DNA of 64,000 bases from a virus, in the IMG/VR virus record IMGVR_UViG_3300046673_000306, positions 42,546 through 106,545 of that record; one strand, 5' to 3'. This document shows, in pieces, positions 13,409 through 64,000 of the stretch (positions are counted from its first letter, which is position 1; each line of letters opens with the position of its first letter). Under the pieces are notes generated by a model that did not search any database, was not told the origin of the DNA, and saw only the letters and a list, made by a program, of their open reading frames with translations. The translations under genes were made by a program, and so were the position numbers.

Positions 13409-16400
13409 CTATTGATACCTGATGATGAACATGACGTTGGCGTTCTTCGGGCGGGACTCTTGGTTCCCACCAGTCGGGCTGTCGATGATGTTACCCGTGT
13501 TAGCGGCCTGCGGGTACGGCCAGTATGCTCCCGCGCCGCCGCTCAGATTTCCGGAGGCGGGATTCATCGGGTGGAGATGACCTCGGTCCACGTCCATCTC
13601 GTAGGAGCCCACAGTGTTGCCGCTCCGGCCGCCAGGCAGACGGTTGAAGCGAGATGCGGCATCGGGGTCGGTGAGAGAGTCGGTAGAGTCGTGGCTCCAA
13701 CCTCTAGGGAAGCACCCGCGCATGTCCGGGAGGTTGAAGTGGGTCCCGTCCGGGGTGCCCCACCGGTCTCCGATGACCGCGTAGAGGTCGGGATACGAGA
13801 CCGTGAGCAGGCTCGTCCCGTCGCACTCCATCCATCCCGCAGGCGCGTTCGGCCCGCAGAACATGGTCATCGAGCCGACCGGGACCGAGGCGAGGGTCGT
13901 CCACGCTGCGGAGGACGGGCTGGTGGCCACCGGTACCTGGCCGACCGTCGGGGTCCCGGTCACGGGTATCGACAACGACCTAAGGAAGGGCCTGACGTCC
14001 TTGATATTCCCCTGGGTCACGATCGGAGATGATCCGTTGTTGTAGACGCAGACGACCTCGGCCAGGACCAGACCCGGCGTCGGGTATGGCGGAGGCGTCG
14101 ACGGAGTCAAGAGCGAGTATCCGGCAGAATTCTCGGGTACGGTGTTTAGGTTCCCGGAATCATCCAGATAAACCAGGCCCACGTAGCTGTTGGCGGCCAG
14201 GGCCAGAGGCACGGACGGGAGAGCGATGCTGCCTCCAGAGCACTGGACCTTGTTCGCACCGTCACTAGCAACGAAGTAGGGACCAGTTGCGACGTTCAGG
14301 TTGATATCCGGTGTCGCCGAGGCGTATGGCCGCAGCTGGTCGAGGCCGACCTCGGAGATGAAACCGTTGGTGCTCATGGCCGCGTTCATCCCGATCTCGA
14401 TCTGCTGAAGCGCTCCCTGGACGGTAGTGGACGTTATCTGGAAGTTGTTGGGGTTGCTCCCGGTGACCGGTTGGATTCCGACTAGGGACGCGCCTTCATC
14501 AGGCCCGACTGCCGCCAGCGTGGTATAGCTCACGAACCCGCTCTCCAGAGCCACTAGGGAGATGTTCGGGCTGTACATGGCCACCGTGGTCGCAGCCGGT
14601 GACGGGGTATTGATCCCGTAGCTCAGCTGAGACCCGACCACGCCGTTTATAAAGTAGGATGGGAGCAGGGTCTTCGGCGCCTGGAAGAAGCAGCCCGTTA
14701 CCGTGGGGTTGCTGGCGATCGGGGTCGGCAGCGTTACTCCGTCGAGGATGTTGATCGCCGCAGATGCCGAGCCCGGACCCATAATGAATGTGGTGTCGAT
14801 GATCAGGGGATTGGATATATTCGTTATGTCGATGATATCGACTGCCGCCGGTGTCCCGGAGGTGCAGTCCGCCGAGCTGAAGGTGCAGTTTGAGATCACT
14901 GGGTTCGATCCGTTCGCGACCACGGCGTTGTTCCCGTTGTTGGTGCACGAAGTGATGCTGCAAAGGGCACCCGACTTCACTACTAGACCCAGGCTCGCGG
15001 CGTTATTGCCAACGGGGGTGTCTGCGGCGTCACCGGTTCCGCCTAGGATCAGGCAGGCCGTGAACGTGGCGTTCACCGAGAGTCCGGTCATGACCACGGT
15101 CGTCACCGTGCAGTCGGAGAAGGCGGAGGTTGATGTCCCGGAGATGAACATGCAAGCCCCGACCACGACGTCGGTCCAGGTCAAGGACGTGCCCGAGACC
15201 ACGATCTGGTTGATCGTCGAGGTGATGTCGCTGCTGGTCAGGGTATTCACCGAACCGCTGAGGCTAACGCAGTCCGTGGCCGTCCCCGCCACTGGGCTAG
15301 ACAAGGACGTGATCGGGGCGATGTTAAAGTCCATGTCCACGGCAGTGAACGACTCGCTGCTATACAGGGCCCGATCATTGGATGTCACCGAGCACCCGCT
15401 GGCGATCATCGTCCCGTTGTTGACCACGGCTCCGATCCCGGGGTTCGGGCCCGTGCTGAAGGCGGTTACTTCGGTGTCGGTAATGGTCACGGTCGCGGTC
15501 GTGTTCACGACGCCCGCCGCCGAGGTCGCCCCGACCCAGTTCCCGCACCAGATATAGGAATCTTGGATCGTGAGCGTCGACCCGATATTGGCCAGGACCC
15601 CGACGGTTCCGAGGGCGCCAACAGGAGCCGTGGCCTGGCTCTCGCCGTATATCTTTTGGCCGATCAGGCAGTTGCTGATCGTAGCCGACAGGACCGACGC
15701 CCCGACGCTGACGATGACGTCGTTCCCGGTTAGGCCGACGCCGATATCCAGGCCTAGATTCGAGACCGTGACATTGTTAGCCGAGATCGTGAGCGCGTTG
15801 AAGTTCCCGCCAACGATGGGCGCGACCCTGATCGTGGTCGTCGTCGGATCAAGGCCCGTTAGCGTGACGTAGGGATTGACCATCGTTATCGGGAACTCGC
15901 TGACGTAGGTCCCGGGCTCGACCAGGACCACGTACTGGTTCGCGTATCCTACGGCGGTCGGCCCAGACATCGGTATGCTGTTTAGGGCCTCCTGGACGCT
16001 GGTGAACTGGCCCCCGGTCTGAGACACGGTAATGAGGTTGTTTGGGGAGAAGTTCTTGGACAGGGCCGCGATCGGCCTCACGTCAATCACGTCTGAGGCG
16101 TTGATCGCGGTCTGGGCCGTGTATCGGTTCACCATCGCTAAGGGGAAGGTCCAGGACCCGGTCGGGACCGCAGGGGCCAAGGGGTTGTTGACGTTGACGG
16201 ATTGCGCTATGTTGATGGAGTACTGTACCTGCTCGCGGTAGGCGCCTGGGCCAAGGGTCGGGTCCTCGATATTGGGGTACTGGGTCGCGGTGACGTCCGC
16301 TATCGAGACCGTGAGGTAGATCAAGTCTGTCCTGGGTGCGGTCGGGACACCGACAGGCATGTTGTAGATGAACTGCGGGGGCGCGCCTATGGCCTGGTGC

Positions 16401-40021: not shown

Positions 40022-43000
40022 CTACCGCCAAACTGAAACACGGACAACTGCACCTGCACCTTGAGCCGAGGTCCAAGTCACGTCCAGGAAGTCGCTGATC
40101 TGATTGGCGAATCCCACGATGATCGTCGGGACTGCCCCCGGAACCTTGTACGCCACGGTCATTATGGTATCTGAAGTCAAAAGACCCGCTAACGACATGG
40201 TTTCGGTCGCGGTAGCACCGGTACCCGGTGCACTATCGATGACTACGATTCCCTTCGGTACCGTAGGCTCCCATTGGGAATCGGTGGCACTATAAGTTAA
40301 AACCTGGCCATCGGTTGGGGTGGCCTCTGTTACTGGGGTGTTTCGGATACCTGCGACTGTGGGATTAGGTAATGTCCCTGAGAGGTCTCCGCCAAGAGCG
40401 GACGACCCACCAAATAATAGCGAGCCTCCTACATTGATACTACCGTTCACGTCAAGAGGATGTGCCGGAGATGATGTGTTTATGCCGACCTGGCCCGTAG
40501 AGTTGACAAAGATCGACGATGCTGGCGCCGCATGGTCCAGGTGGAACACAGCTGCACCGTTAAATCCATTACTGCCGGTAAGAGACTTTAGTTCAAAAGC
40601 TCCACCGGTATTTCTGGCCACAACCTGCCACCTAGTAGTCGCCAAGGTGTATGGGGTAAGGGTCAAGGAGCCGTCTAGGATTTGCCCATATGTTGCGTTA
40701 CCGCTAGAGCTGATACTAGCTCCATTAACGGCATCGACCTGAAACACGAGGCCCACGGAATGGCCGTAATGCCCGAGCTGAACTGTGAACACACCGCAGC
40801 CACCAGTGCCTGGGATGGTCTCTACACCACCGTTGGCTACGCCGAGCTTAAGGCTCGCCGCGACATCCAGGCCAGAGAGGCCAGTAGTCACGACCAGGGA
40901 AGCATTGTACTTATTGAAGGCGTCTCCGGGAGTGGTAAGCGTATATATTGTGTTCGTAAAACTCGCCGTGAACGATGCGTAAGAATGCGAGTACGCACCC
41001 CCCGTGGGGTGCGTCGAAGGAACTGGCGCTGTCTGAGCATGACTTGGGTCACCACTCACCGCAACGCCAACCAAAATCGCGGCGGCGGGGTATGACAAAA
41101 CTGCCACCATGACCTGCGCTGCCGTCGAGACCCCCGATGCTATCTGGACATGTATGGCCGCCGAGGATACTGTCACGACCTCTGAACCTGCGGTGCCGCC
41201 GGTTTGGTAAGAGATTGCGATGGCACGTCCCGCAAGCCCAGTCGAAATAGAAGTATACGTGAGGTCCTGTATGACTACGCTCGATACACTATCCACGGAA
41301 GCCGGAGTAGAGGCGCGCACGGCGCTCTGGATGGCTGCTGCAATATTGGCCCCACCGGTTATAGCAGATGAACCCAGGTTAATGGTCAATGGGGATTCCC
41401 CATTGATAGTCATCGTCAACGTGGAGTTCGCCGCCACCGAAGTCGCGGCTCCAGATCCCCCTACGGACTGCCACCCAAAGATAGATCCCGTCCAGAGAGA
41501 CAAACCGCCACCAGTCGCCCCTGCTGACCCAGAAAGAATATTAACAGACCCGCCATTATAATCGGAGTCGCCTGCGAGCGCGTATATAGCACCGCCCCCA
41601 AGCGAGCCGCTAGTCCCATAAGCTCTGCCGCCAATAAGTATAATTCCATCCCCAGCACTGCCTGGAGCCACTGCTCCAGAGGGGCCCATTATTTCAACCG
41701 GAGACAAGTACCCACTGGCATTTATAGACGGCACAAGGATAGCGCCTGGTGAATTTAATGGATTGCTGGATTTGAGATTAACCCCTGAGATGGCCGCACC
41801 ATATCCAGGTCCAAAAATAGTTGGCAGAAACGCCGGACCCACTGGAGACCAATTGAAGATTGGCATTGAATTGTTCGTGTCGCTAGAGAAGGTCTCACCC
41901 TGAATAGCGTGAACGGAAGTCACCGAAGGATTCGGGTATTCCCCGGATAAATCACCGCCTGCATAGCCGGTTGGGGTGGCCTCTGTGATTGGGGCCGGTA
42001 GATTAGTTGGCTCCCATTGGGAATCGGTGGCACTATAAGTTAAAACCTGGCCATCGGTTGGGGTGGCCTCTGTTACTGGGGTGTTTCGGATACCTGCGAC
42101 TGTGGGATTAGGTAATGTCCCTGAGAGGTCTCCGCCAAGAGCGGACGACCCACCAAATAATAGCGAGCCTCCTACATTGATACTACCGTTCACGTCAAGA
42201 GGATGTGCCGGAGATGATGTGTTTATGCCGACCTGCTCGGAGGAATTGACGAATAGTGCTGGTGGGACTCCAAAACCGGAACCGGAACCAGCTTTATATA
42301 ACCCGAAAGAACCATCGGAATCCGAATGTTCAAGAACCCACATTCCTGATCTATTGGCGGCATGAAGAAACACTCTTGCGTTAGGATTCTGACCCGAATT
42401 CGAACCTCCGAATATATTTAGACCATCCCCATCCCAATAACCGATCGTAGATGTCCCCGGACTACCGCTCCCTGCGATGAAGTGAAATCCACCAGTGCCT
42501 CCCACGCCTCCGAAATACTCTTGCCCACCATTATCAATTCCTAATTGCAGAGCTGCCGCCACGTCTGGACTAGACAAACCAGTGCTGACCACGAGACTGG
42601 CTTGCATGTGGGTTAGAACATCCCCTGGGGCCACCATCTGGTACGCGCCTCCAGAAAATTGACACTGGAATCCAGAATACGAGATTTGATTCGTGGGAGT
42701 CGCGGCAGTCAAGGCCTGAACCTTGGCTTGGATATCAGCCGCAATCGCAATCCCCGTGCTATTGGCGGCCAGGACAATAGTCTGCGCAGCTTCACCATCG
42801 ATAGACATGGTCAATGTCGCGCCCGCAGAGACCGAGGTTGCGGGGCTATCGCCGCTATCGGATTCCCATCCGAGCACATTGCCTGAGAAGAAAGTCATGC
42901 CGCCGCCTGAGGTGCCTCCACTGATACCAGCCGCGATGTTCATCCCGCCGCCGCTGAAGTCAGGGGAACCAGCAGAAATGAAAGCGTTGCCCCCGGATTG

Positions 43001-47671: not shown

Positions 47672-48553
47672 TTAGAACGGAACGAAGGTGGGTTTGCCCG
47701 TGACGTTGATCCGGGAGCAGGCGCGGGGGTTGACCACCGCGATTCCCAGTTCCTCGTACACGACCCAGCCCAGGCGCAGGCGCTCGGGCTTGTCCGCAGG
47801 GATGACGTTGACGTCCTGGCGGATCGGGATCACGCCCGTGAACTCGGGCTCGGCGATGACCCAGATGGTCCCGCGCGGCACGATCTTGGAGACCAGGATA
47901 TCCAGGGTCCAGAGGTGGCCGACGAGGCCGGTCTGGAGGACTTCCCGCTGGGTCACGGGATCGAACTGATCCCGCCCGAACTTCATGAGGTCGGAGTACT
48001 CGGAGAAGTTCATGACGAACTTCCCGGGCACGAGGTCCCATTTCCCGATCTCAGCGAGGCCGCTGACCAGAGCGTCTCGGGTCAACTGGTTGGCCACGGT
48101 CGTCTCGGGGTTCAGCAGGTTGCTGGACCGATCGATGGCGTTGAAGACGTTCCGGTCTTCCTCGGCCATCAGATCGAGCTTCGCGCGCTGCTGGGCGCGG
48201 TCGATCAGGTTGTAGCGGCGCTCCTTGACCTGACTGAACCGCACCTGGGGGTAAGACACGATCTCCCAGGTCCCGACGGTGATGCGCTCGCCCTCCACGA
48301 TCGAGTCCGGCGCGGAGCCGCGCTTGGAGACCACGATCACGGGGATTTTCACGTCCTTGTCGTAAACCGGCAAGGCGCCCTGAGGCAGGGGGTCCACGAC
48401 GAGGAGCTTCCGTCCGATGCCTTGATAGTCCAAGGACAAGCGGATCGGGTTGGCCATGCTGCTGGCCAGCGCCATGCGACCGGCTTCGGTCTTCAGCGCT
48501 TCCTCGATCAGGAACTCCTTCTGCTCGGGGGTCATCGTTGCTTGTGCGTTCAT
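47672..48553 (-). CDS. major capsid protein (HK97 fold)
   Basis: MANPIR..LDYQGIGRKLLVVDPLPQGALPVYDKD; EEDR..F; GWVVYEELGIAVVNPR; AAGGAGGAGG RBS; synteny. Confidence 0.85.
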   Translation of the reverse strand: MNAQATMTPEQKEFLIEEALKTEAGRMALASSMANPIRLSLDYQGIGRKLLVVDPLPQGALPVYDKDVKIPVIVVSKRGSAPDSIVEGERITVGTWEIVSYPQVRFSQVKERRYNLIDRAQQRAKLDLMAEEDRNVFNAIDRSSNLLNPETTVANQLTRDALVSGLAEIGKWDLVPGKFVMNFSEYSDLMKFGRDQFDPVTQREVLQTGLVGHLWTLDILVSKIVPRGTIWVIAEPEFTGVIPIRQDVNVIPADKPERLRLGWVVYEELGIAVVNPRACSRINVTGKPTFVPF

Positions 48554-48649
48554 GCTGACCTCCTCCTTCGATGCGCGGGCCACTGGCCGTCCGGGCCCGT
48601 CGCGGTGCGACGTCTGCGTCTGCGGCGTGAGACTCGTCTCAGGTCAGCT

Positions 48650-52565: not shown

Positions 52566-54701
52566 CTACGCCAGGATGGCCTGCGCGATCCCCATGTCCA
52601 GGAGGTTGCTCACCTTCTGCCAGTCGCAGAGGCAGTTCTTGTTCAGCTCGGACTCGGCCTCGGCCAATATCTCGGCCATGCGCGCCTGGCCCTTGACCTT
52701 GCGCAGCGCCGCGATCTTCTCCAGGTGCTTGGCCTTGGTGTCGGCGCCGACGGTGACCCACGACTCCTCGATGAACTCGACGCCGCGATTGTCCTCGGCG
52801 GCGAGCACGTTCTTCCACCCGGTCTCGGGGCCGCTGTACTGCTGCCCCTTCCAGTTCTTGACATGGGGGCAGTACTCGGCCTCGTTGTGGGCGACGTTCG
52901 CGCAGATCGTGCAGATGGAGTAGGCGACGCGGCAGTTGTGGACGGCCATGCCGTTGGCCACGAAGGACTCGTCGCCTTCCACTTGAAGGTCGACGACTGG
53001 TCCGTAGTACTTGACGATCTCTTTGGACTTGATCGGTGTCCAGATGCACCCGTCCTGGATGAATTTGTTGTGGTGCGGCCTCTTGGGCTCCACTATGGAA
53101 ACCTTAGAGACCGAAGAGAGCTTCTGGGAATAGGTGCATCCCACGGCGACCTGGAACTCCACGGTGTCCTTCCTCACGACGGAGTTCTTGGAGGGCTTGT
53201 GCTTCAAGACCTGGATGTTCGCGATGATCCCGCAGCGCGCGAAGATGGACTGGGCCTGACGCGCTAGGACCTCGGAGGAGGTTGAGTAATAGACCATCCC
53301 CGTCTTGGTCTGGAAGCCGTCGCCATTGATCATGGCTCCGAGCATCTCCATCTGGACGGAGGGGTCCCAGAGGGTGACCTCGTTGGACAGTGACTTGGTC
53401 TTGGCGCCCCGGCCCGCATGGTCCGTGAAGACCTTGGGCCAAACGCGATCGTGGACCTCCAGGTAGAGGCCGTTCCGTTCCTCGCAGACTCTGGCGTGGG
53501 CCTCTTTGCCCATGACCTTCTTGCAGAGGTTGGCGATCTCCTCGGCGATCTTCCCCTCATTGATGTTGAGGGCGAACCCCACCCCGGACATCTTCCCGTC
53601 CTGGGTGATGATCCAGCCCTCGGAGATGTAGTAGCCCAGGAGGCGCGCGAAATCCTTGTTGGAGAAGGTGCTGGGCTTCACCTCGGTGGGGAAGGGGATG
53701 CCCACGTAGTCGCCCACCTTTATGTCTGCGGCAGAGACGAAATTCGGGGAAACTTCGCGGGGCTCCAAGAGAGCGGTCCTATTCCTTTGGCGCTCGTACC
53801 CCGATTCCTCCATCCGCTTCAAGTGGCGCTGGTGGCTCATGCGGGAGCGCCACATGTTCTGCTCTTTCCTTCTCTGGGCCGAGATGGACCAGATGGGGTG
53901 GTCCCCCGTGAAGACCGTGGCGGTGAGGCCCTCGGCCTTGATCGAGACGACGGTGCCCTCGATCTGGGAGACCTGCACCGCCTTGACGATCTTGGGGCGA
54001 CCGCAGTGGGTGACGACCTCGACCCCGGGGATCATGTGCCCGGCCATCACGGTCTCCCCGGAGGCCAAGAGAACGAGGGATTCGGGGTGGACGGCGCCCA
54101 TCGATACGTCTGTGATGTATCCGCTGTCGATGCCCCGGACCAGCATCGGGTCCTTGGTCCGGTCCACGGCGAGCAGGAGTTCGACGCCCTTAACCCGATG
54201 GTTCGGTACCGCGTCGAGGATGATGCCGACGGCGTCAGCGACCTTGGAGTTGTTGTGGTCCTTATAGTTGCCTTTCCCGACGAAGGTCTGGTACACGCTC
54301 TTCCCCACCATACTGCCCTCTCGGATCAGGCGCAGGAGTTCGGGCTCGTTGGCGTCGTCCTTGGAGCCCCAGCGGAAGAGGTCGCCGTTCGTGTTCGGCC
54401 AGTCCCCGTGCAGGCCCATGACCCGGTAGAAGCTGAACTCGGGGTTCATCGGGGCCACGCGCTGGACGTTGATCGCCTTCTTGTAGTCGTCGAGCAGGGC
54501 CGCGTACTTCTGCGGGGCCTCGGCGATCTTCAGACCGAAAGCGGTGCGCTCCACGAAGTGGTGCTCGCACCGGGGCCGGACAACGCCCGCCGTCCGGAAG
54601 AGGGCGCACTCGGGGCAGGAGCCGTCGGCGCGCTCCACGACCTTGCCGCCGAAGGACGCGTACTTCAGCCAACCGCCGCTGGGGAGCGCGATCTGGTTCA
54701 T
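52566..54701 (-). CDS. prohead protease (with intein)
   Basis: PNTNGDLF..TFVGKGNYKDH..AVGIILDA..VELL..VD..ITDVSMG|CRVAYSICTIC..YCPH..FIEESWV..GAD..A. Confidence 0.8.
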   Translation of the reverse strand: MNQIALPSGGWLKYASFGGKVVERADGSCPECALFRTAGVVRPRCEHHFVERTAFGLKIAEAPQKYAALLDDYKKAINVQRVAPMNPEFSFYRVMGLHGDWPNTNGDLFRWGSKDDANEPELLRLIREGSMVGKSVYQTFVGKGNYKDHNNSKVADAVGIILDAVPNHRVKGVELLLAVDRTKDPMLVRGIDSGYITDVSMGAVHPESLVLLASGETVMAGHMIPGVEVVTHCGRPKIVKAVQVSQIEGTVVSIKAEGLTATVFTGDHPIWSISAQRRKEQNMWRSRMSHQRHLKRMEESGYERQRNRTALLEPREVSPNFVSAADIKVGDYVGIPFPTEVKPSTFSNKDFARLLGYYISEGWIITQDGKMSGVGFALNINEGKIAEEIANLCKKVMGKEAHARVCEERNGLYLEVHDRVWPKVFTDHAGRGAKTKSLSNEVTLWDPSVQMEMLGAMINGDGFQTKTGMVYYSTSSEVLARQAQSIFARCGIIANIQVLKHKPSKNSVVRKDTVEFQVAVGCTYSQKLSSVSKVSIVEPKRPHHNKFIQDGCIWTPIKSKEIVKYYGPVVDLQVEGDESFVANGMAVHNCRVAYSICTICANVAHNEAEYCPHVKNWKGQQYSGPETGWKNVLAAEDNRGVEFIEESWVTVGADTKAKHLEKIAALRKVKGQARMAEILAEAESELNKNCLCDWQKVSNLLDMGIAQAILA
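52935..54095 (-). mobile_element. intein with LAGLIDADG endonuclease, Ala at position 1 (387 aa)
   Basis: AVHPESLVLLASG; FTGDHPIW; LLGYYISEG; MINGDG; VVDLQV..SFVANGMAVHN|C. Confidence 0.85.
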
Positions 54702-54928
54702 AGGGGTTTCCTCTCGTTGGTGCTGCTGGGATTTATGATCATCCCGCACTTCGGGCAGAAGACGGTGCCGTCGGCGCTGGCCTGGGCCAGGACGCGGCAG
54801 TTCGGGCACGAGACGTTCAGTTCTGGGATCATAGGCTGGGCCTTGGACTTGGGGTCGACCCAGCCCGCCGCCGGATCGAAGCCCAGTACCTTTGACTCCT
54901 TCGGTGCTCCTTGCTTGATCATGCTCAT
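54698..54928 (-). CDS. small Zn-ribbon protein
   Basis: CPNC...CPKC; overlap-coupled to its neighbours. Confidence 0.6.
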   Translation of the reverse strand: MSMIKQGAPKESKVLGFDPAAGWVDPKSKAQPMIPELNVSCPNCRVLAQASADGTVFCPKCGMIINPSSTNERKPL

Positions 54929-54929
54929 A

Positions 54930-56693
54930 TCATTGCAGACCGTGGCGCTTAACCCACTCCTCGTGGGGCACGAACTCGCCGGTGTCCTGGTCCAGGAGCC
55001 AGGGGCTGGTCTCTCCCTCCATGAAGGTCTTGAGCGGGACGAACTCGTTGCGCTTCGGGTCCCACTTCCACTCGATGTCCGTCCACTGGTTCTCCTGCTC
55101 GGGCAGGCCCAGGCCGGGGCGCTGGCCCTCCGGGACGTCTCCGAGGTCCACCGGCGCCTCGGTCAGGCCGGGGTCGATGTCGCCGGGGGCGACCGTGACC
55201 TTCTCCGAGAAGTCCAGCATCTCCTCGGTCCGGTTGATCCGGAAGAGGCGGCACTCGCAGTTGTGCACCGCGATCCTGTTGGCGATGTAACTCTGCGACC
55301 CCGCGACGGAGATATTGTGGACCATGCCAGAATACGGAACCCTGCCCACTGACCTAAGCATTGAGACCACGCTGTTGGCCGCGACCAGGACTCTGGAGTT
55401 GGTGTGCGGGGGCTTACCGACCCGGTCCCACGACCACCTGTTGAAGTGGATCAGATAGTGGGGGAACTTTTTAGTTGATCCGGCCAAGCGATCCTGAGGT
55501 CCGGTGGGGGTCATGGTCTCGTTCATTAACACCGGGACGTGCAGGCGATCCAGCATCACGTACAGTTGGTTCGCCAACTGCTTGGAGTGAGTGGTGATGT
55601 ATATCCTCTGGGTCCTCCCGAGATATTTGTCCGAGAAATTCCGGTTGGATATGTGCCCGTCTCCCCGAATGAAGGCGTTGAGAAAAATTCTCTGTTTATC
55701 GATGGGCCACCTCATGGCCTCGGGTGCCATCTTCTTTTCACGCGCGCCGAGCCCGCCCAGTCCCATGAATATCTTGGTCCATTTTTTAGATGACCAGTAG
55801 ACCACCGTGGCGTGCCCGTTCTTCCTGATCGAGAGATGGCTATCTTGCTCCAGGCGGGAACACAGAGCCCCTATCCTATTCGCGAAATCCATCTCATGCT
55901 GGCCTATGGTGAAGATCAGGGCTATCCTCTCTCCGGTGCCCCTGTTGAGCCTCGTGCAACCCTCGGCCATCCAGTACCCAAATAGTTCCACCTGCTCGTC
56001 CGTTAGATCGCACCCAGAATTTCCTGACACCGTTGGGAAATAGACCTTGTCGGATACACCCCTTTTTCTCCGAACGCCTGCTTCGAGGTCATCGGCTGGG
56101 ACAAAATCCCAATCCGAGAACACAGTCCCGCCGGAATTAGCGTACTTCAAGTGGCCCTTCTGAGCGTAGACGCGATGGTTCGGTGTCAGCAATAGTTCCT
56201 TTCCGTCCCACGACAATAGGCTGACCAGGTCGCCCACGTATTTCCTCTTCGTCGTCCCCGTCACGAGGTGGGCCTCTCCGTCATGCCCAAGGACCGCGTC
56301 CCCTTTCCTGATGCTCTCTATCAAGCGAACAGAACCATCCGACATCATGATCTCCGTCCCCGGGGGCAAACAGTTGACGTGGCTCATCGTGTACTTCGGC
56401 GCGTTGTGCGTCATGTTCTGGAGCAGCCAGTCGATCTTGAAGCGCTGGCCGTCCAGGGCGAAGCACACGGGACAGACGCTACCCATCTCCTGCCAGAGCT
56501 TCTCATTCTGCCAGGGCTCGAAGCCGTAGCGCCACTCCACCTCGCGGAAACCGGCCTTGAGGAAGTCCTGGAGCACGAACGCGCTCATGTCGTCGCGGGC
56601 GGTCGCCAGCTTCCGGACCAGCACGGACTCGGGGAGCGCGAGCCGGATCGGCGCGCGCTCGACTGCCCTGTGCGGGTAGATGATCGGGTTCAC
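54930..56693 (-). CDS. head morphogenesis protein (Mu gpF/SPP1 gp7-like motif) with intein
   Basis: VCPVC.ALDG..F and SHVN|CECR (HPNCRC-like) exteins. Confidence 0.75.
   Translation of the reverse strand: MNPIIYPHRAVERAPIRLALPESVLVRKLATARDDMSAFVLQDFLKAGFREVEWRYGFEPWQNEKLWQEMGSVCPVCFALDGQRFKIDWLLQNMTHNAPKYTMSHVNCLPPGTEIMMSDGSVRLIESIRKGDAVLGHDGEAHLVTGTTKRKYVGDLVSLLSWDGKELLLTPNHRVYAQKGHLKYANSGGTVFSDWDFVPADDLEAGVRRKRGVSDKVYFPTVSGNSGCDLTDEQVELFGYWMAEGCTRLNRGTGERIALIFTIGQHEMDFANRIGALCSRLEQDSHLSIRKNGHATVVYWSSKKWTKIFMGLGGLGAREKKMAPEAMRWPIDKQRIFLNAFIRGDGHISNRNFSDKYLGRTQRIYITTHSKQLANQLYVMLDRLHVPVLMNETMTPTGPQDRLAGSTKKFPHYLIHFNRWSWDRVGKPPHTNSRVLVAANSVVSMLRSVGRVPYSGMVHNISVAGSQSYIANRIAVHNCECRLFRINRTEEMLDFSEKVTVAPGDIDPGLTEAPVDLGDVPEGQRPGLGLPEQENQWTDIEWKWDPKRNEFVPLKTFMEGETSPWLLDQDTGEFVPHEEWVKRHGLQ
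55260..56372 (-). mobile_element. intein with LAGLIDADG endonuclease (371 aa)
   Basis: CLPPGTEI.MSDG; LTPNHRV; GYWMAEG; FIRGDG; VHNISV..SYIAN.IAVHN|C. Confidence 0.9.
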
Positions 56694-57130
56694 TTGGCTG
56701 GGGGTTCCTGCTGCGGGGGCTGCTCCTGCCCGCCCTTGACCCCGGAGAGGTAGTCCATCAGGGCCTTGCCGTCCAGAATCTTCTCCACGTCCCAGGCCGC
56801 CGGGTCCTGGAGCACGCGGTTGATCAGGTCCTCGAACCAGGTCCGCATCCTGCGGTCAACCTCTGCGGCGTCGACCTGGGACCCGCGCTGGCTCAGGTAG
56901 TTGACCAGGGCCTGATACCGCTGTCCTGCGGCGTGGTCCGCCGGGGCCTTGGCGGTCTTGGCCTTGGCCATGCGGCCCAAGGACGCCATCTGGAGCTTGC
57001 GGTAGTCGAGGTCGGGGAGGTGGGTCTTCTCCGACATGAGGCCGGGGCGCAGGGCCACGTCCTCTGGGGAGCCGGTGCGCACGTCCTTGCGGTCTCCCGC
57101 GCCACGGTAGTTCTTGGGGTCGAAGCTCAT
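56690..57130 (-). CDS. hypothetical head-region protein
   Basis: 146 aa; ATGA/GTGA overlaps. Confidence 0.7.
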   Translation of the reverse strand: MSFDPKNYRGAGDRKDVRTGSPEDVALRPGLMSEKTHLPDLDYRKLQMASLGRMAKAKTAKAPADHAAGQRYQALVNYLSQRGSQVDAAEVDRRMRTWFEDLINRVLQDPAAWDVEKILDGKALMDYLSGVKGGQEQPPQQEPPAK

Positions 57131-60060
57131 GCCGCCTCCGGGAGTCCCTGACCGGCGCCCGCGCCAGGTATGGTCTCCGCCGCAGGCATGGGCGTGCCCG
57201 GGGTCGGGACCGTGGCCGCAGTCTCGCCCTCGCCGGGGACCGGTCCCTCACCGCCGCCGCTGTCCCCGCCGCCGCCGCCACCCATGGGCGGAGGGGCCCC
57301 GGCGCCGCCCGCCCCGGGCTTGCCTCCGGGCTTCATCCCCTGCATCGCGGCCTTCTTCTCCTCGGCCCTCTCCCGCTCGATCTGGCGCTTCTCCTTGCGG
57401 TAGTCCAGGCCCAAGTACGTGTAGAAGGTTTGCTTCGAGATCAGGCCGGTTTTGGCCATCTCCTTCATCAGGCCCTTCATCTGGACGTCGTCCTTGAGCT
57501 TCATGAACTCGAACTCGATGTCGGGGACGATGTACTCGTCCTCCCCGAGTTCGTTGCGGCGCCGGAAGTCCTGGGCGATGGCCACGGGCCGGAAGATCGT
57601 GTCCTTGATCCAGCGCGCCAGCATCTCCTGGCAGCGCATGTAGCGGTTGATCAGGACCTGGAGGCCGATCGACCCGGCGGCAAAGTTCGGGCCGGTGCCG
57701 CCGATCATGGCCTCGGAGCCCATGAGCGCGGCCATGATCTCCTCCCTGATCCACTTCGACTCCTGGTCGAAGGGGTGAATCTTCCCGGCGCTGGACACGT
57801 ACTCGACCGAGATCGCGTGGTGGTAGACGAACCAGGCGCTCAGGTCCTGGCTCAGCTCGTCGAAGGCCTCGCGCACCTGCGTCACGGCCTGCGGGTTCGC
57901 GGGCATGGTGTCAGTGCCGACCTTCACGAGCTTGATCGGGGTGATGTGGCGCTCGTACACCGCCTGCTGGACCCGGCGCACCAGGTCCTTGAAGATCAGG
58001 GGCTTGAAGGCCCGGAACATGATCGGGGTCCCCACGCTCTCGTACGGGCTCATCTTGTAGGCGAGGTGGCTGACCCGGAACTTGTTCAGGGGTATCTTCT
58101 CGCCGCGCGCGACGAGGTTGACCAGCTGCCCGTTCTCGATCTTGGCCAGGGCCTCGTAGAGTTCCTTGGGCTGGCGGCTGGCGACGATCCGCTTGAGGTT
58201 GTCGTCGGGGTCGAGCTTGAGGATCGGCTCACCGACCAGGGATGACTTCTCGACCTCGACGAAGTCGGGGTTGAGGAGGTTGAAGCCTGTCCAGATGCCA
58301 CGGTCGTCGTCCCACTCCCCGAAGGGGAAGACGTTGCCCAGCTTCCACCACTCGTGGCTGACGTCGCCGATAAGGTTGAGGCCCTTGATCACGTCGAAGA
58401 ACAGAATCTCGAAGAAGAGTTTCACCTTCTCGTCGTCGCAGACCAGGTGGGCTCCGGTCATCGGGAGGTCCGAATTGTGGACCACGATCGGGGCGCAGAA
58501 CGATCCGTCTTCGGTAGTTATGTCGTAGACGGTTCCGGAGAACTTTTTCTTCCGGACATCCCTGACCTTGACCAGGAATCCTCCGGGGGCCTCATGATAC
58601 GTCTTCCTAGGGGATCGAGCAGACTCATGCGCGATTCCGTAGACCTTGGGGAGCACCTCGGTCTTGGATGCGCGCATGTAATAGATAGGCTTTCTCTTCT
58701 GCCCGTCTTTCCTGGAGGTGATGGTCTTAATGGAGAACAGAAAACCCAGCCGCGCGGCCAGGACCTCCATTTGGTAGGCGAGAGTCCGCGACACCGTGTT
58801 GGACTTAACGCAGAATTCATCGGCCATGCAGCCGTCCCCATTGAGGTATCCGATCAAAAATTTCCTCATCCAGGACGATTCCCCATCCATGATCCACTGA
58901 GGCACTCGCTTGTTCTGTGCCCCGAGTCCAAATTCCGAGCAGAACCACTTGGACAGGAGACGCGAACAGACATAGACCTTCGCGCCGTGGGTCTCCTTGG
59001 TGATCATGACCTTCGGCTCCATCTTAAAAACCTTTCGGATCAATTCCGAGACCCTGGCGATATTATTGGGCTCGTGGGTACCTAGGCAGAAATAAATCGC
59101 GCCACCGTCGGAGTAGCCCTCGGCGGCCCACCACCCTCCCAACTCGCAGAGATCGTCATCGGCGATCACCTTACGAGGTATCCTGGACCCTGATTTTATA
59201 GACAAGATCGTGTCGCCCTGGACCTCCATCAGGCTCACCTTGTGAGACCTATCGGTTTGAGGGAAACCTACCCCTGTCTGATTGCGTATGGTCATGTCAT
59301 ATTTGACCGAGCGCTCCCGAATAAACTTGGAGAGGTCGAACTCCACCGCCTTATTGGTAGGAATTCGCTTGGGGAAGAACAGATAGTCTCCGGGCCTGAC
59401 ATCCTCGGCCCTAACCCAGGATGGTCCCCCGTCCGGCATCCATCTCCCGCAGTCGTTCCTGATCTTGCCGCACTTGTCCAAACGCGGCATGTGGTCCATA
59501 TAGCGACCGTGCACGACCCATAGCCCTTCGTTGTGGGTGACCTTCAACTCAGGTAGACAGAATGGCTTCACGGTGTAGAGAGTCCCGTCGTAGTGGTGGG
59601 ACTCCGCGTGCTTGACAACCTTGGCCCTGCCGTCCAAACCAGGTACCGAATCGCCCTCTTTCACGTCCTCAATGTTCACGACGTCGTTCATCGTATACAC
59701 TGCGGAACCGGCGGCGAAGCAGTGCATATCTATCACGGTCCCGACATAGCCATCCGTTTTATAAAAATGTCTCGCCCACTGGTCAATTTCCCGTGTCTTC
59801 GTCGGAAGCTGTAGGTTCAGCGCCTCGAACAGAGGGTGGTAGAACGACGGCGCCTGCCGGTGTAGGCCCGGCCTCATGTTCCCGAACTGCGACGCCATCT
59901 TCTTCATGCGCGCGCGGGGAATGTCCACGAGGGCGCTGCCGGTCAGCCCCGGGCTCACCGCGTTCTTGATCATCTTGAACTCGGCGTCCAAGTTGGACGT
60001 GACGAGACCCGACCCTTCAGGGGCGGGCACGCTCGCGGTCTTGTCGTTGGCGTCAGCCAT
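57127..60060 (-). CDS. portal protein (with intein)
   Basis: W.RHFY..V..VID.H|SDLP; EWWKLGNVFPF; LLNPDFVEV; V.HL..K.SPY..GTP; Gly/Pro C-tail; synteny. Confidence 0.8.
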   Translation of the reverse strand: MADANDKTASVPAPEGSGLVTSNLDAEFKMIKNAVSPGLTGSALVDIPRARMKKMASQFGNMRPGLHRQAPSFYHPLFEALNLQLPTKTREIDQWARHFYKTDGYVGTVIDMHCFAAGSAVYTMNDVVNIEDVKEGDSVPGLDGRAKVVKHAESHHYDGTLYTVKPFCLPELKVTHNEGLWVVHGRYMDHMPRLDKCGKIRNDCGRWMPDGGPSWVRAEDVRPGDYLFFPKRIPTNKAVEFDLSKFIRERSVKYDMTIRNQTGVGFPQTDRSHKVSLMEVQGDTILSIKSGSRIPRKVIADDDLCELGGWWAAEGYSDGGAIYFCLGTHEPNNIARVSELIRKVFKMEPKVMITKETHGAKVYVCSRLLSKWFCSEFGLGAQNKRVPQWIMDGESSWMRKFLIGYLNGDGCMADEFCVKSNTVSRTLAYQMEVLAARLGFLFSIKTITSRKDGQKRKPIYYMRASKTEVLPKVYGIAHESARSPRKTYHEAPGGFLVKVRDVRKKKFSGTVYDITTEDGSFCAPIVVHNSDLPMTGAHLVCDDEKVKLFFEILFFDVIKGLNLIGDVSHEWWKLGNVFPFGEWDDDRGIWTGFNLLNPDFVEVEKSSLVGEPILKLDPDDNLKRIVASRQPKELYEALAKIENGQLVNLVARGEKIPLNKFRVSHLAYKMSPYESVGTPIMFRAFKPLIFKDLVRRVQQAVYERHITPIKLVKVGTDTMPANPQAVTQVREAFDELSQDLSAWFVYHHAISVEYVSSAGKIHPFDQESKWIREEIMAALMGSEAMIGGTGPNFAAGSIGLQVLINRYMRCQEMLARWIKDTIFRPVAIAQDFRRRNELGEDEYIVPDIEFEFMKLKDDVQMKGLMKEMAKTGLISKQTFYTYLGLDYRKEKRQIERERAEEKKAAMQGMKPGGKPGAGGAGAPPPMGGGGGGDSGGGEGPVPGEGETAATVPTPGTPMPAAETIPGAGAGQGLPEAA
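58474..59721 (-). mobile_element. intein with LAGLIDADG endonuclease (416 aa)
   Basis: CFAAGSAV; GWWAAEG; FLIGYLNGDG; VYDITTEDGSF..VVHN|S. Confidence 0.9.
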
Positions 60061-60069
60061 AGAGATATT

Positions 60070-60504
60070 TTACCTCGCCTGCATGTCGTAAAAACTCTGC
60101 TGTATCGCGTCTCCGGGGTTCCCCGTCGTGGTCTGCCCCTCTTCCTGGGGGTCCCCCTCCTTCACCGCGTTAGGCATCGTCTCCTCTACCAGCGTTCGAC
60201 GTCTCTTCCGGTTCGCGAGCATGATCGAGGATGGGGACCCGGTGTCAGGCTGATTCTCCGTCCCGTACCCCTTCTCGACGTTGCGGTAGCCCGCCGGGCC
60301 CTCGAAGAACTCGGGCTCTTGACCTTCGAGGCCCTGCGGAGGGCGGAAGCGCACGCGCTGGCGCGGGCGGATAGGTCCACGAAGGCCCGGACCATCCTTC
60401 TGGTTCTTCTGATCGAGCGGTTGATCGACTTCAACAAGGTTGAGATTCTCCGGACCCTGGCCGCCAATTCCGGAGTCCGGGCCCCGGACATCGGCGACGT
60501 GGTC
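60070..60504 (-). CDS. C-terminal extension (144 aa) of the 62650-60503 protein, reached by +1 frameshift
   Basis: Open frame starting GAC at 60504 (DHVADVRGPDSG...) to the TAA just before the portal ATG; contains ORF 60070..60354; no ATG at its 5' end. Confidence 0.7.
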   Translation of the reverse strand, partial: DHVADVRGPDSGIGGQGPENLNLVEVDQPLDQKNQKDGPGLRGPIRPRQRVRFRPPQGLEGQEPEFFEGPAGYRNVEKGYGTENQPDTGSPSSIMLANRKRRRTLVEETMPNAVKEGDPQEEGQTTTGNPGDAIQQSFYDMQAR

Positions 60505-60517
60505 AAAGCGACCCCCT
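60502..60517 (-). promoter_or_regulatory. prfB/RF2-type +1 programmed frameshift signal
   Basis: AGG GGG TCG CTT TGA C versus E. coli prfB AGG GGG TAT CTT TGA C. Confidence 0.8.
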
Positions 60518-62650
60518 GGAAGTGAGGGTTCCGACCACGCCAGCGCTCGCCTGGGGCATCCCGTTGACGCTGGTGACCGCGACGTCCGCCCCTCCGGGGG
60601 GCACGTCCATGGTCGCCACCTGCTTCCCCGGCCCGGGGCCGACGATGCGCTTGACGCGCTCCTCCGGGGTCTCGGGAGTGCAAGGGGTGTCCAGGGCGTG
60701 CTCCTGGCCGCACTTATGGCAGACCGAGAACGCCTCGCCAGCCCCCAGCTCGGGGCTGTCCGACGGCCACATCGCGTCTGCCAGGCAGAGGCTGCCGCTG
60801 AGACTGGCCTCGGTCTTCGCCGGGATATTCGCGTGCTGCTTGTCCTGCTCCTCCTGCTGCGTCTTCTTCCGCTCTTCCCGGTCCTCGCGCCGCTTCTGCT
60901 TGCGCTCCTTGTCCTTGTCCACGCGCTCGTGTAGGGCCTCGATCGCGTCGTGGAGCTGCTTGATCTTGACCGGGTCCTTCTCCGAGTCGAGCTGGTGCCG
61001 AAGTTCCTTGATCTTCGCGCGCTCGCCCTTGGCCTCCTGGGACAGTCCGTCCACGGGGTAGGCGATGATGAGGTTTCCGTCCTTCGAGGGTCTCGCCATC
61101 GTGATCCCGGTCAGGCTCTCGATCTCGGAGGTGACAGCGCGCGCCATCGTCCCCATCTGGCTGGCGATCAGGGGGTGGCGGAAGGCTTCGATGAAGGAGT
61201 GGCCCAAGGCCATAGCCGACACTTGGTATGGCACAAATTTATCGCACGGACAAGTGCCATATTTCAGACTCGGGTCCTGATATGCGCATGATCCCTCAGG
61301 CCCTGCTATATATGGAACTCTGTCTCTGCGAGCCTTCTCGGTATGCCACCCCAGATCATGACCACATTCTCTGCACAGGTTCTTGTCTCCGAACTCCGCC
61401 ACGATCTCGCGCGCGATCGACTGCGCCCGATCCGGCTGTGCCTGGCGCAGGGTCAGCGTGTCTCTGACCGAGAGCCGGACGTGCTCGGACTCGCCCTCGT
61501 ACTGGGGCGCCCAGATCACCATCTGCTGGGCCTTGGGCCACCAGTGGTTGGCGATGCCGCCGAGCTTGGCGTGCTCGCAGCCCCTGCACTTGTCGCGGTA
61601 GGTCTCGTGCGTGACGTCGGACTCGAACCAGACGCAGTCCCGGCACTTGTTGATGTCCTTGTAGATCGAGTTGCCGGGCTCGGAGTCGCCGGGGTCGCCG
61701 GAGGCGGCGGTCTTCACCGTCCCGTCCAGACCGGCCTCGGCGCCCTTCGCCGCCGCCTGCTCCTCCGACTCCTCGCGCATGGCCTCCGGGGTGTCCGGAC
61801 CCGGAAGCTCCGTGGTCGGGGGCATCCCGTCCCCGGGCATCCCCGGGGTCATCATCGTGTTGACGTTGAGGTCGGCGATGATCTCGTTGAGCATGGACTC
61901 GATCAGGAGCATCTTCGTGTGGACGCAGCGCATGTCGTCGTAGGCCTCGTCCATGGCCTTGCGGACCATGGCCGGGATGTGCCCCGCGATCGCCGACGCC
62001 GGGCTCGGGGTCTCCTCCGAGGGCGGCATCTCCGGGAGGCCGCCGTCCATGAGTTCGATCTCGGGCATGGCCGGGGACGAGGCGGGCTCGACCGCCCCCT
62101 TCTTCCCGAGGTAGTTGGCGGCGTCGTTGATCAGGAGGAAGGCGTTGGAGATGGCCTCGGCCTGGGCCACGGACATGTCCGAGGCCTTATCCCTCAGCTG
62201 CGTCACGGCACCGATCACGGCGTCGGCCTTGGCCGTGATCTCGCCGCAGAGGTCCGCGACCTTCTGGTCGCCTCCGCAGGCGCCGACCGAGCCCTTGACG
62301 CCCTCGGCCTGGTCCGCGATCCGGCTGAGGAAGTCCACGGCCTTGACGCGCTCGGCCTGGCTCAGCTGGGCCTCGGCGCGGCGGTGCATGTCGATGATGC
62401 GGTCGAACACGGACTCGGCCAGGTGCTGCGGCGCCGAGACCTTGGTCAGTCCCGCGACCTTGACCATGCCCTGCCGGATCGGGGCCTTGCCCTGAGTCTG
62501 GATGCCGTCGGAGAGGCGCTGGACCCGGAGGTCATCGGCGGAGGCCTGCTTGAGATTCGGAGCCCGGAGCCCCAGCTTGTTGGCGAGGGTATGCCAGAAG
62601 CTGCTGGCCTTGTCGTCGCGGCCTTCGGGGTTTTGGTAGGGGGTGATCAT
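60503..62650 (-). CDS. large head-region protein with Cys clusters and coiled coil
   Basis: 715 aa from ATG 62650; CRDC..CRGC, CRECGH..H..CPC, CHKC motifs; directly upstream of portal. Confidence 0.75.
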   Translation of the reverse strand: MITPYQNPEGRDDKASSFWHTLANKLGLRAPNLKQASADDLRVQRLSDGIQTQGKAPIRQGMVKVAGLTKVSAPQHLAESVFDRIIDMHRRAEAQLSQAERVKAVDFLSRIADQAEGVKGSVGACGGDQKVADLCGEITAKADAVIGAVTQLRDKASDMSVAQAEAISNAFLLINDAANYLGKKGAVEPASSPAMPEIELMDGGLPEMPPSEETPSPASAIAGHIPAMVRKAMDEAYDDMRCVHTKMLLIESMLNEIIADLNVNTMMTPGMPGDGMPPTTELPGPDTPEAMREESEEQAAAKGAEAGLDGTVKTAASGDPGDSEPGNSIYKDINKCRDCVWFESDVTHETYRDKCRGCEHAKLGGIANHWWPKAQQMVIWAPQYEGESEHVRLSVRDTLTLRQAQPDRAQSIAREIVAEFGDKNLCRECGHDLGWHTEKARRDRVPYIAGPEGSCAYQDPSLKYGTCPCDKFVPYQVSAMALGHSFIEAFRHPLIASQMGTMARAVTSEIESLTGITMARPSKDGNLIIAYPVDGLSQEAKGERAKIKELRHQLDSEKDPVKIKQLHDAIEALHERVDKDKERKQKRREDREERKKTQQEEQDKQHANIPAKTEASLSGSLCLADAMWPSDSPELGAGEAFSVCHKCGQEHALDTPCTPETPEERVKRIVGPGPGKQVATMDVPPGGADVAVTSVNGMPQASAGVVGTLTSRGSL

Positions 62651-62664
62651 CTTGGTTCTCCTCT

Positions 62665-63978
62665 CTATGGAACGTATATCGGGTCGCCCTGGTCTCCGCC
62701 GCACATCATCTGGCTGTCCTTGGGCACGTTTCCGCCGACGTAGCTCACGTCCGTCTTCGAGACGTCGACCTGGTCCTTGTTATAGTCGTCGATAGTGAGC
62801 CAGTCCTTCCTCGGGTGCGGCGACTTCCGGGTCTGGCCGAGGGGGGGCACCGACTGCCCCGGGAAGTGCTGGGGCTCCGAGGTCGGGACGGCGGCCAGAG
62901 CCATGAACTTGACCCCGGCAGTGACCGTGGGCTCGGGACCGCCGCGCACGGTGCGGACGGCGTTCTCCAGGGCGTCGAAGCCCATGGTGAAGAAGCGGTG
63001 GATGGAGGCGACGCTGTCCAGGCCGTGGGCGTGGACCAGGCGTATGAAGGTGTCGTACACGGACTCGTCGTTAACCGGGAGACCGATCTTGCCCAGGACC
63101 GCGCGGAGGACGCGGGCGACGCCGAGGTCCCAGAACGCGCGGTCGACCACGCCCTCGACCCCGCTGGCTCCGGCGCTGACACTGGCCCGGTACTTCAGCT
63201 TCTGGAACAGGGGCGCCGCCTCCTCTTGCTCTTCGTGGATGGCCTCGTACTCGTCCAGCACTTCCTGACCGAAGACGACGATCTTGTCCTTGCCCGTGTT
63301 CTTGCCCACGACCAGGGCGAAGTGGGCCTCGATGGGCCGCTTGCCGATTCCGACCGTAGCGCTGTGCCCCGTCTTGTCCCTATATATTCTACGGATTCCC
63401 TCGATCGTGTCAATGTCCAGGGGCAGGGTGAAGAGCATGTTGTCGCCGCCATCGAAGATCAGGCGACCGCCGTGCTCCTTGACCACGTCCCCGATCTCGT
63501 CGTGGGCGTCGTGGATCGAGCGCGAGATCGCGGATGCGGCCTCGGGGTCGTCGGTGAGCAGCGTCTCCTCGACCAGGCTCCCGATGTTGTCGCCGTCGAT
63601 GCCGACGAAGACCTGGGGCTCGGAGTCGTCGGAGAGTTCGGGCCCGGAATCGTCGTCGTCCGCCGCCGCGTCCTTGTCCATGCCCGGAGCCTGGCCGTAG
63701 TTCTTGTCATACCACTCCCGGGTGTGGATGGGACTGCGCTCGCTCACGCCGGTGGTGCGCTGGAGGGACTTATCGACGATGTACTGCGAGACCAGGTTCT
63801 GCATGGTCTCAGTCAACGTCTCCTTCGTGTCTTGCTCGCTTACGTAGCCCGCGATCCTCTCCGTGAGCCAGTAGGTGGCGACCCCGATTTCGCGCTTGGT
63901 GAGGTTGAGGCCGCTGCGGACCAGGAGGCTCTGGACCTGGGTCTTCAGCTGGTTCCAGGAGACCTCGGTCTTGAACAT
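62665..63978 (-). CDS. protein containing a minimal CRISPR polymerase (mCpol; Cas10/GGDEF-like palm) domain; may extend beyond the window
   Basis: FVGIDGDNIG..S..I....GG.LIFDGGDNML..SATVGIG....AH.AL..GK..GKD at about 63612-63272; frame open to the window end. Confidence 0.75.
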   Translation of the reverse strand: MFKTEVSWNQLKTQVQSLLVRSGLNLTKREIGVATYWLTERIAGYVSEQDTKETLTETMQNLVSQYIVDKSLQRTTGVSERSPIHTREWYDKNYGQAPGMDKDAAADDDDSGPELSDDSEPQVFVGIDGDNIGSLVEETLLTDDPEAASAISRSIHDAHDEIGDVVKEHGGRLIFDGGDNMLFTLPLDIDTIEGIRRIYRDKTGHSATVGIGKRPIEAHFALVVGKNTGKDKIVVFGQEVLDEYEAIHEEQEEAAPLFQKLKYRASVSAGASGVEGVVDRAFWDLGVARVLRAVLGKIGLPVNDESVYDTFIRLVHAHGLDSVASIHRFFTMGFDALENAVRTVRGGPEPTVTAGVKFMALAAVPTSEPQHFPGQSVPPLGQTRKSPHPRKDWLTIDDYNKDQVDVSKTDVSYVGGNVPKDSQMMCGGDQGDPIYVP

Positions 63979-64000
63979 GGGTTCGTCCCTGGACTCGTCG

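Follow-up and report, generated by a model that had tools for sequence, protein, structure and literature searches.

Why would a phage keep a minimal CRISPR polymerase (mCpol) among the genes that build its head? So far, the domain has been studied in one role alone, as the bacterial half of the Panoptes guard, which turns the sponges of a phage against it. The question is raised by the IMG/VR virus record IMGVR_UViG_3300046673_000306, a contig of 106,545 bp with a CheckV completeness of about 64%. Its last 64 kb form the stretch of DNA analysed here (64,000 nucleotides, hereafter the window). The source is an uncultured large phage, a distant relative of Bacillus phage G. An earlier note on the window, made from the letters alone, had called an mCpol domain in the head-assembly operon, in the last gene of the window. 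Here, we examined this domain, the protein that contains it (hereafter the carrier) and the neighbourhood of its gene. The analysis reveals a phage lineage in which an apparently active mCpol is retained as a well-conserved core module of a protein from the head operon. What is new here is that mCpol has been recruited by phages onto virion-module proteins.

The carrier holds a full-length mCpol family domain, far beyond chance resemblance. The Pfam mCpol profile PF18182 matches residues 124-236 with 74.7 bits and an E-value of 9.6e-21 (cut-off 26.4) over the full length of the profile (positions 1-114 of 114), and the NCBIfam mCpol model NF033576 matches with 52.4 bits (cut-off 40). The call made in the earlier note is confirmed by these two matches, which lie above the curated thresholds and cover the whole profile. 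The PADLOC models CARF_HEPN_mCpol and Cas10 matched over the mCpol/palm portion only, and so did the Pfam family Cas10-Cmr2_palm2, at 39.4 bits. Across Pfam, PHROGs, PADLOC and NCBIfam, mCpol is the sole recognised domain of the carrier, and PHROGs has no family for the protein. The GGDEF profile PF00990 has no match in the carrier or in the 106-kb contig; the hairpin motif reads GGDN.

The catalytic residues of KpOptS, a Panoptes OptS from Klebsiella, are Asp6 and Asp57 (PMC12657218), and both align with aspartates of the carrier (Table 1). The DGD and GGDN motifs lie on the minus strand exactly where the earlier note had put them, and the two further motifs that it had listed are present as SATVGIG and ALVVGKNTGK. 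In KpOptS, Ser30 contacts ATP, and N34 is a second residue of ATP selectivity (PMC12657230). Ser30 aligns with S152 in a phmmer alignment and is kept. Within an alignment of 172 mCpol domains, the signature D-D-S-H-G-G-D-N is found in 20 of the 21 members of the carrier family; in the exception, P0028, the DGD and GGDN residues are gone. No other part of the carrier is as well conserved as the mCpol region, whose mean pairwise identity is 62% vs 26-45% in the other regions. Judged by its residues, the domain appears to be intact and under purifying selection, and it is probably an active cyclase.

The structure of the carrier was predicted with AlphaFold2 as a single chain, using the 471-residue protein P0001 and 23 aligned sequences. 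The mCpol region, P0001 156-270, has a predicted local distance difference test (pLDDT) score above 90. A Foldseek search of the Protein Data Bank (PDB) placed the OptS structures 9pd0, 9mnr and 9nwn at the top, with TM scores of 0.81-0.85 and root mean square deviations of 1.7-2.6 Å over about 117 residues. An independent all-against-all comparison with VIA-align gave 9mnr_A a Z score of 16.6, with 1.9 Å over 117 of 119 residues. Lower VIA-align scores were obtained for GTP cyclohydrolase III (Z 13.3), for GGDEF domains (12-13), for class III cyclases and for the Y-family polymerases Dbh, Pol kappa and Rev1 (Z 11-12.6). The earlier note had proposed a structure search against mCpol, GGDEF and GTP cyclohydrolase III, and had allowed for a non-synthase fold as the best match; OptS, which is clearly the best match, is a synthase.

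Around the mCpol domain, the carrier can be described as a chain of a helical N-terminal domain, a linker, a helical region and a tail. The long helix and small bundle that follow mCpol in the model are possibly a dimerisation element. The C-terminal tail, which is also present in relatives without mCpol, is a candidate docking or targeting peptide.

The gene of the carrier is cut by the end of the contig. The earlier note had given the open reading frame as 62665-63978; its frame and strand are right, whereas 63978 is not the start of the gene, which runs past the contig end. Read from the ATG at 63978, the carrier has 437 residues, and the contig terminates 22 nt upstream of this ATG. The full-length carrier has 471 residues in P0001, which is 99% identical, and in L005 (L005:10001-11413). 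Because the frame is open up to base 64000 and the relatives continue N-terminally, by at least 34 residues, the ATG at 63978 is an internal methionine in a gene truncated by the contig end. The upstream neighbourhood was therefore read in relatives (L002/L005, L003/L006 and L007).

About 26 homologues of the carrier were found, all of them metagenomic, several on contigs of 40-170 kb. Most have about 615 residues and consist of the N-domain, mCpol, a helical region and a strongly conserved tail that ends in PIYVP. Two of them, P0019 and P0020, lack mCpol but keep both the N-domain and the tail, and P0019 fills the same slot in L016, between the gene of a DUF7417 protein and the partner gene described below. 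In P0028, the tail is kept and the active site is degenerate. Because a carrier without mCpol occupies the same slot and P0028 has a dead site, mCpol is an optional module on a carrier with a role of its own. No GGDN-type relative was found in prokaryotes by a scan with the family-motif pattern of one genome per species, in 185,579 species. In one locus (L016 1356-2563, Ga0187857_10010741), an insert of 1.2 kb with no clear forward-strand gene lies between the DUF7417 and carrier genes.

The carrier gene opens a co-directional series that continues with a gene of 715 residues (hereafter the partner), the intein-split portal gene, a gene of 146 residues, a 587-residue intein-bearing 'head protein' and the protease. 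The protease gene is followed by that of a 989-residue protein and by the major head protein gene. The earlier note had placed mCpol two genes upstream of the portal, which is right: the carrier comes first, then the 715/733-residue gene, then the portal. In L002 and L005, which are 98-100% identical, the gene upstream of the carrier encodes a DUF7417 protein of 1064 residues and ends 2 nt before the carrier start. It is preceded by six more uncharacterised genes. The order DUF7417 protein, carrier, partner, portal and protease is kept in L006, where the carrier is 49% identical, and in L007, where it is 33% identical, and it bears out the position in the head module. Because this order is kept and no terminator-like site was found on the coding strand between the head-module genes, which are tightly spaced, the carrier is a stable core gene of the module and not a mobile accessory cassette.

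A cognate effector was looked for around the gene and across the contig. None of the genes within 10 kb, in L002 and L003, encodes a hydrophobic stretch of 19 residues such as a transmembrane helix would have, and the ten neighbours have no sensor or effector match in Pfam, PHROGs or PADLOC. In the 106-kb contig, which has exactly one mCpol, there is no small protein with two transmembrane helices (2TM) and no match to a Cap15-type receptor, SAVED, Csx1/Csm6 HEPN or APE2256 (PF18153, PF18145, PF09455, PF09659, PF09651). The earlier note had seen no CARF, SAVED or 2TM effector in the window, and for the families tested this absence holds for the whole contig. It had also suggested inspecting the sequence beyond 64 kb; no cognate effector was seen in relatives whose sequence continues for 10 kb beyond the end of the contig. 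An ordinary carried Panoptes cassette was rejected on these grounds, with no 2TM, SAVED, Cap15-type or tested HEPN/CARF match near the gene in three relatives or in the contig. As the searches of the neighbourhood and of the contig gave no cognate effector, the locus appears to be neither a Panoptes system nor any known mCpol operon type (PMC12657218).

One candidate for a CARF effector came from PADLOC, whose contig-wide tally lists 25 of 75 families. Its 'Csx1' model PDLC01039 (E 2.7e-39) falls on two TnpB/Cas12f-like genes, and the candidate was rejected. PDLC01039 matches at the same places, and in the same control genomes, as PF07282. The 'Csx1' label of this model is thus misleading for CARF searches.

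Table 1 Coordinates of the carrier, its segments and the genes discussed. Positions are those of the window, except in the last row.
Feature	Position	Strand	Remarks
mCpol carrier gene	62665..64000	-	5' end lost at contig end
N-terminal helical domain	63697..64000	-	P0001 ~30-128; pLDDT 82-92; family-specific
Acidic disordered linker	63616..63696	-	P0001 129-155; 26% mean pairwise identity
mCpol palm domain	63271..63615	-	Residues 122-236 of the 437-residue reading, P0001 156-270
DGD motif	63589..63597	-	First Asp, D128 (P0001 D162), aligned to KpOptS catalytic Asp6
GGDN hairpin	63439..63450	-	Asp D179 (P0001 D213) aligned to KpOptS catalytic Asp57
Long helix and small helical bundle after mCpol	62938..63270	-	P0001 271-381 (AlphaFold2 model)
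Conserved C-terminal tail, predicted disordered	62668..62868	-	FPGQ..QKSP..DWLT.ED.N..VD..KTD...GGD.G.PIYVP
715-residue partner gene	60503..62650	-	ATG at 62650; starts 14 nt past the carrier stop
Portal gene with Hint/LAGLIDADG intein	57127..60060	-	Anchors the head module
Head maturation protease, phrog_18299	52566..54809	-	387-residue insertion relative to L006, probably an intein
Major head protein, phrog_2522	47672..48583	-	61% identical to Bacillus phage G gp27
TnpB/Cas12f-like genes matched by PDLC01039	G000:C1:24760-25842 and 41044-42129		The latter just before the window start

The partner family and the carrier family occur on the same contigs, and their genes are adjacent in every locus seen. 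The partner is predicted to combine helical and disordered parts and has an invariant cluster of Cys and His residues; it has no transmembrane segment and no match in Pfam, PHROGs or PADLOC. With a mean pLDDT of 51, its AlphaFold2 model is uncertain and too poor for a fold search, and the ESM Atlas gave no usable match for the partner or for the mCpol-less carrier. A 733-residue downstream reading frame was considered as an assembly frameshift, and this was dropped, as L002 has the same two-frame layout. In the window, a +1-frame open reading frame at 60070-60532 (minus strand) follows the partner gene and reaches the portal start; the L002 equivalent is a frame of 897 residues that ends at 13968, with a +1 frame at 13931-14383. 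The L002 partner gene has extra segments of about 130 nt and about 390 nt relative to the window. The mCpol coding region, which precedes the partner gene, contains a near-perfect sigma-70-like promoter match at about 63386-63413 on the minus strand (L002 10566-10593). It reads TTGACA, 16 nt, TAGAAT (11/12), and is either due to chance in DNA of 62-66% GC or an internal promoter.

Further down the module, large insertions relative to L006 are found on the minus strand in the portal gene (58470-59740), the 'head protein' gene (55262-56369) and the protease gene (52934-54095). The first two match Hint/LAGLIDADG and are inteins, while the protease insertion (residues 239-625) was deduced by comparing the gene with L006 and L007. 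L002 is otherwise 94-99% identical but has no DNA that matches the portal intein region, which suggests a different intein allele. By its capsid protein, Bacillus phage G is the nearest cultured relative, and it has counterparts of the portal, the protease and the major capsid protein. A homologue of the carrier was looked for in this phage and rejected: no carrier, tail or mCpol is present there. Its gp59 (L015 37334-37606), about 17 kb from the capsid gene, is annotated as DUF2829, which is Tad2-family sponge-like.

The domain also occurs in other phages. A motif scan of IMG/VR gave seven further viral contigs with mCpol. In L009 (7685-13660, IMGVR_UViG_3300009503_000022), a polyvalent protein of 1992 residues adjoins a 'minor head protein' about 7 kb from the capsid gene. 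It comprises an ATP-dependent DNA ligase, mCpol, GGDEF, a LigD PrimPol, a sigma-70 region 2 and a LigD 3'-phosphoesterase. This single predicted cargo protein thus has two different nucleotide cyclase domains, mCpol and GGDEF. Other viral settings are a GNAT-mCpol protein, a HEAT-mCpol protein and an mCpol protein beside a Nudix/ParB polyvalent protein, and further viral mCpol proteins are placed between baseplate-like genes. Related mCpol domains are found in the polyvalent proteins L009, L010, P0030 and P0042, and metagenomic representatives include mCpol-InPase and mCpol-GGDEF fusions. A quick tree was made of 171 domains over 118 columns, in which only the starred split is trustworthy. The whole carrier family lies to one side of a branch, within a well-supported clade together with short forms and a polyvalent protein. 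The GGDN-type clade holds 6 of the 8 viral-contig sequences in the tree, while a second viral group, of GGDD type, lies elsewhere. The phage domains' own clade lies apart from most other mCpol representatives, and the 150 nearest representatives include no sequence of the KpOptS type.

The analysis establishes the identity and fold of the domain, the conservation of its active site, the synteny and the modularity, and that an effector of the Panoptes kind is absent from the loci and the contig searched; from there we infer catalysis, packaging, delivery and a targeted host pathway along the following lines. Because the carrier gene is fixed in the head-assembly operon and the carrier also exists without mCpol, our best explanation, held tentatively, is that the carrier is a modular late protein of the virion module with mCpol as a cargo enzyme that alters host nucleotide signalling. 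The mCpol domain would probably dimerise like OptS, perhaps through the helix that follows it, and would probably condense nucleoside triphosphates to a cyclic di- or oligonucleotide, with ATP as the likeliest substrate. The carrier would be made late and incorporated into the particle, for which the invariant disordered tail is the obvious candidate docking peptide; that it is virion-associated we put a little short of an even chance. Comparative evidence for the cargo role is indirect and consists of the mCpol-less carriers found in this slot and of the polyvalent and baseplate-adjacent proteins in which other phages have mCpol. The enzyme would then work during the following infection, or at a late stage of the ongoing one, and its target would be host cyclic-nucleotide signalling, most plausibly nucleotide-based immunity. 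This mechanism follows the logic proposed by Iyer, Burroughs, Anand, de Souza and Aravind in 2017 (PMC5512222), who predicted that injected polyvalent proteins carry GGDEF domains and RelA/SpoT synthases against host signalling; their list has GGDEF and not mCpol.

Several points weigh against this cargo-enzyme explanation. A gene's place in a head operon is no proof that its product is packaged. The variants that lack mCpol or have a dead active site show that the carrier can do without the enzyme in its role. The N-domain and the tail matched no known fold; for the N-domain and the helical bundle, the structural match lists were filled by the mCpol domain. Either segment as a targeting signal common to several proteins was a candidate that had to be rejected, as the profile searches match only the carrier gene in the contig. 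The residue that corresponds to N34 of KpOptS is H156 (phmmer alignment), and in the 172-domain alignment His is conserved across the carrier family, so substrate and product may differ from those of OptS. The family is wholly metagenomic, and no relative was found in 50,697 cultured-phage records (tblastn, even with the domain alone at E up to 1). Moreover, the third of the genome that the contig lacks may encode effectors or sponges, and the partner, given the low confidence of its model, may yet be a receptor.

The carrier could instead be a late cytoplasmic enzyme, never packaged and co-transcribed with the head genes, that reprogrammes host physiology or excludes superinfecting phages, for example by control of the envelope, lysis timing or receptor display of the kind exerted by c-di-AMP or c-di-GMP. 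Operon position alone fits this equally well, mCpol is constitutively active in Panoptes (PMC12657230), and phages are documented to interfere with c-di-GMP physiology (for example PMC8085984, PMC8669472). However, it leaves unexplained why a conserved carrier with an invariant disordered tail persists without mCpol in the same slot, and why mCpol recurs in polyvalent and baseplate-adjacent proteins of unrelated phages; we regard it as doubtful, though next in likelihood. A narrower form of our best explanation holds that the phage mCpol makes the same decoy nucleotide as the host synthase (2'3'-c-di-AMP, related dinucleotides or cA3). A 2TM-beta or CARF-TM guard would thereby stay inactive for as long as sponges or phosphodiesterases of the phage remove immune signals. 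In the fullest version, the tail would load the carrier into the capsid, and the injected mCpol would make this decoy or a competing ligand; if true, it would be the first case both of an anti-guard ('anti-Panoptes') counter-defence and of an immune-type cyclase delivered by a virion. No solved structure is closer than OptS, whose catalytic Asp residues and Ser30 have their counterparts here, no effector was found with the phage copy, and Sullivan et al. explicitly foresee such a counter-move, an 'anti-anti-anti-defence' of phages against Panoptes. Even so, both the proposal and the full chain from capsid loading to silenced guards seem unlikely to us. The earlier note had suggested such a refilling of the decoy, or the jamming of CBASS/type III signalling; neither idea draws support from the results. 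His takes the place of N34, the phage domains are in a clade of their own, apart from most other mCpol representatives, and a constitutive synthase would have to outpace the signal depletion by the phage itself. In addition, Tad2 (PF11195) is absent from the 106-kb contig, this being the only sponge family searched (Acb1, Acb2 and Tad1 were not searched).

Two further readings place the activity within the phage itself, and both are less probable still. One of them takes the carrier and the partner, or a gene in the missing third, as synthase and sensor of a signalling or defence pair, that is, a carried abortive-infection, superinfection-exclusion or assembly-checkpoint module. The two families are adjacent wherever they were seen and the contig is incomplete, which fits; yet the partner has no transmembrane segment or family match and, in its low-confidence model, no Rossmann-like or beta-barrel sensor look, and the contig-wide searches for SAVED, Cap15-type, Csx1/Csm6 HEPN, APE2256 and 2TM proteins were negative. 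The partner also stays beside the mCpol-less carrier, which, as far as gene order tells, argues against a dedicated receptor and leaves such a pair improbable. The other reading denies cyclase activity: the domain would be a template-independent nucleotidyltransferase or polymerase (Thg1-like, Y-family-like) or a non-catalytic nucleotide binder that serves DNA packaging or end processing near the portal. The palm fold is indeed common to polymerases, as the scores for Dbh, Pol kappa and Rev1 attest, and L009 fuses mCpol with a ligase, a PrimPol and a phosphoesterase. But OptS is clearly the best structural match, the GGDN hairpin and cyclase-type residues are kept, L009 has GGDEF too, and polyvalent proteins typically join unrelated activities; we consider this reading the least probable, and very unlikely.

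If the domain is active, phages themselves make immune-type cyclic nucleotides. This opens the questions of which product is made, whether the enzyme is delivered with the DNA, and whether it silences guards or makes host effectors misfire. The small domain can be expressed and assayed without cultivation of the phage. In the literature searched, no description of a phage mCpol or of an anti-Panoptes factor was found.

Among known systems, the closest to the carrier is OptS of Panoptes (KpOptS, PDB 9mnr/9pd0/9nwn; PMC12657218, PMC12657230, PMC13577387). Both have the same minimal Cas10-like palm fold of about 115 residues, with the catalytic Asp pair and the ATP-contacting Ser, and by analogy the chemistry is presumably the same, the condensation of nucleoside triphosphates to cyclic nucleotides across a dimer interface. 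However, OptS is a stand-alone protein of about 14 kDa, while the phage domain is embedded in a 471-residue protein between N- and C-terminal regions. The hairpin is a canonical GGDN in the carrier and a degenerate AADG in OptS, and His replaces N34. OptS is encoded in bacterial defence islands; Panoptes is located in bacterial or archaeal genomes, often beside CBASS, whereas the phage gene lies in a viral contig, in a head-assembly operon between the DUF7417 gene and the portal, and no 2TM-beta, CARF-TM or SAVED effector partner was found with it. Cas10 (Csm1/Cmr2) of type III CRISPR-Cas has a homologous palm with a GGD-type hairpin; unlike Cas10, the carrier has no HD domain, second palm, D2/D4, Cas7/Cas5 partners or regulatory loop L1 context. 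Virion-delivered phage enzymes include the T4 internal proteins and Alt, the N4 virion RNA polymerase (vRNAP) and MuF-fused polymorphic toxins. They are packed in the capsid and, once injected, act before the genes of the phage are expressed. What the carrier shares with them is the idea that an enzyme gene stands among late or structural genes; no capsid-targeting sequence or protease site was identified in the carrier. Compared with the injected polyvalent proteins of PMC5512222, it has one recognisable enzymatic domain only and no MuF, portal or zincin-peptidase fusion. What they have in common is that a domain for nucleotide synthesis is borne by a protein of the virion module encoded near the portal; the carrier gene is co-directional with those of the protease and the major capsid protein.

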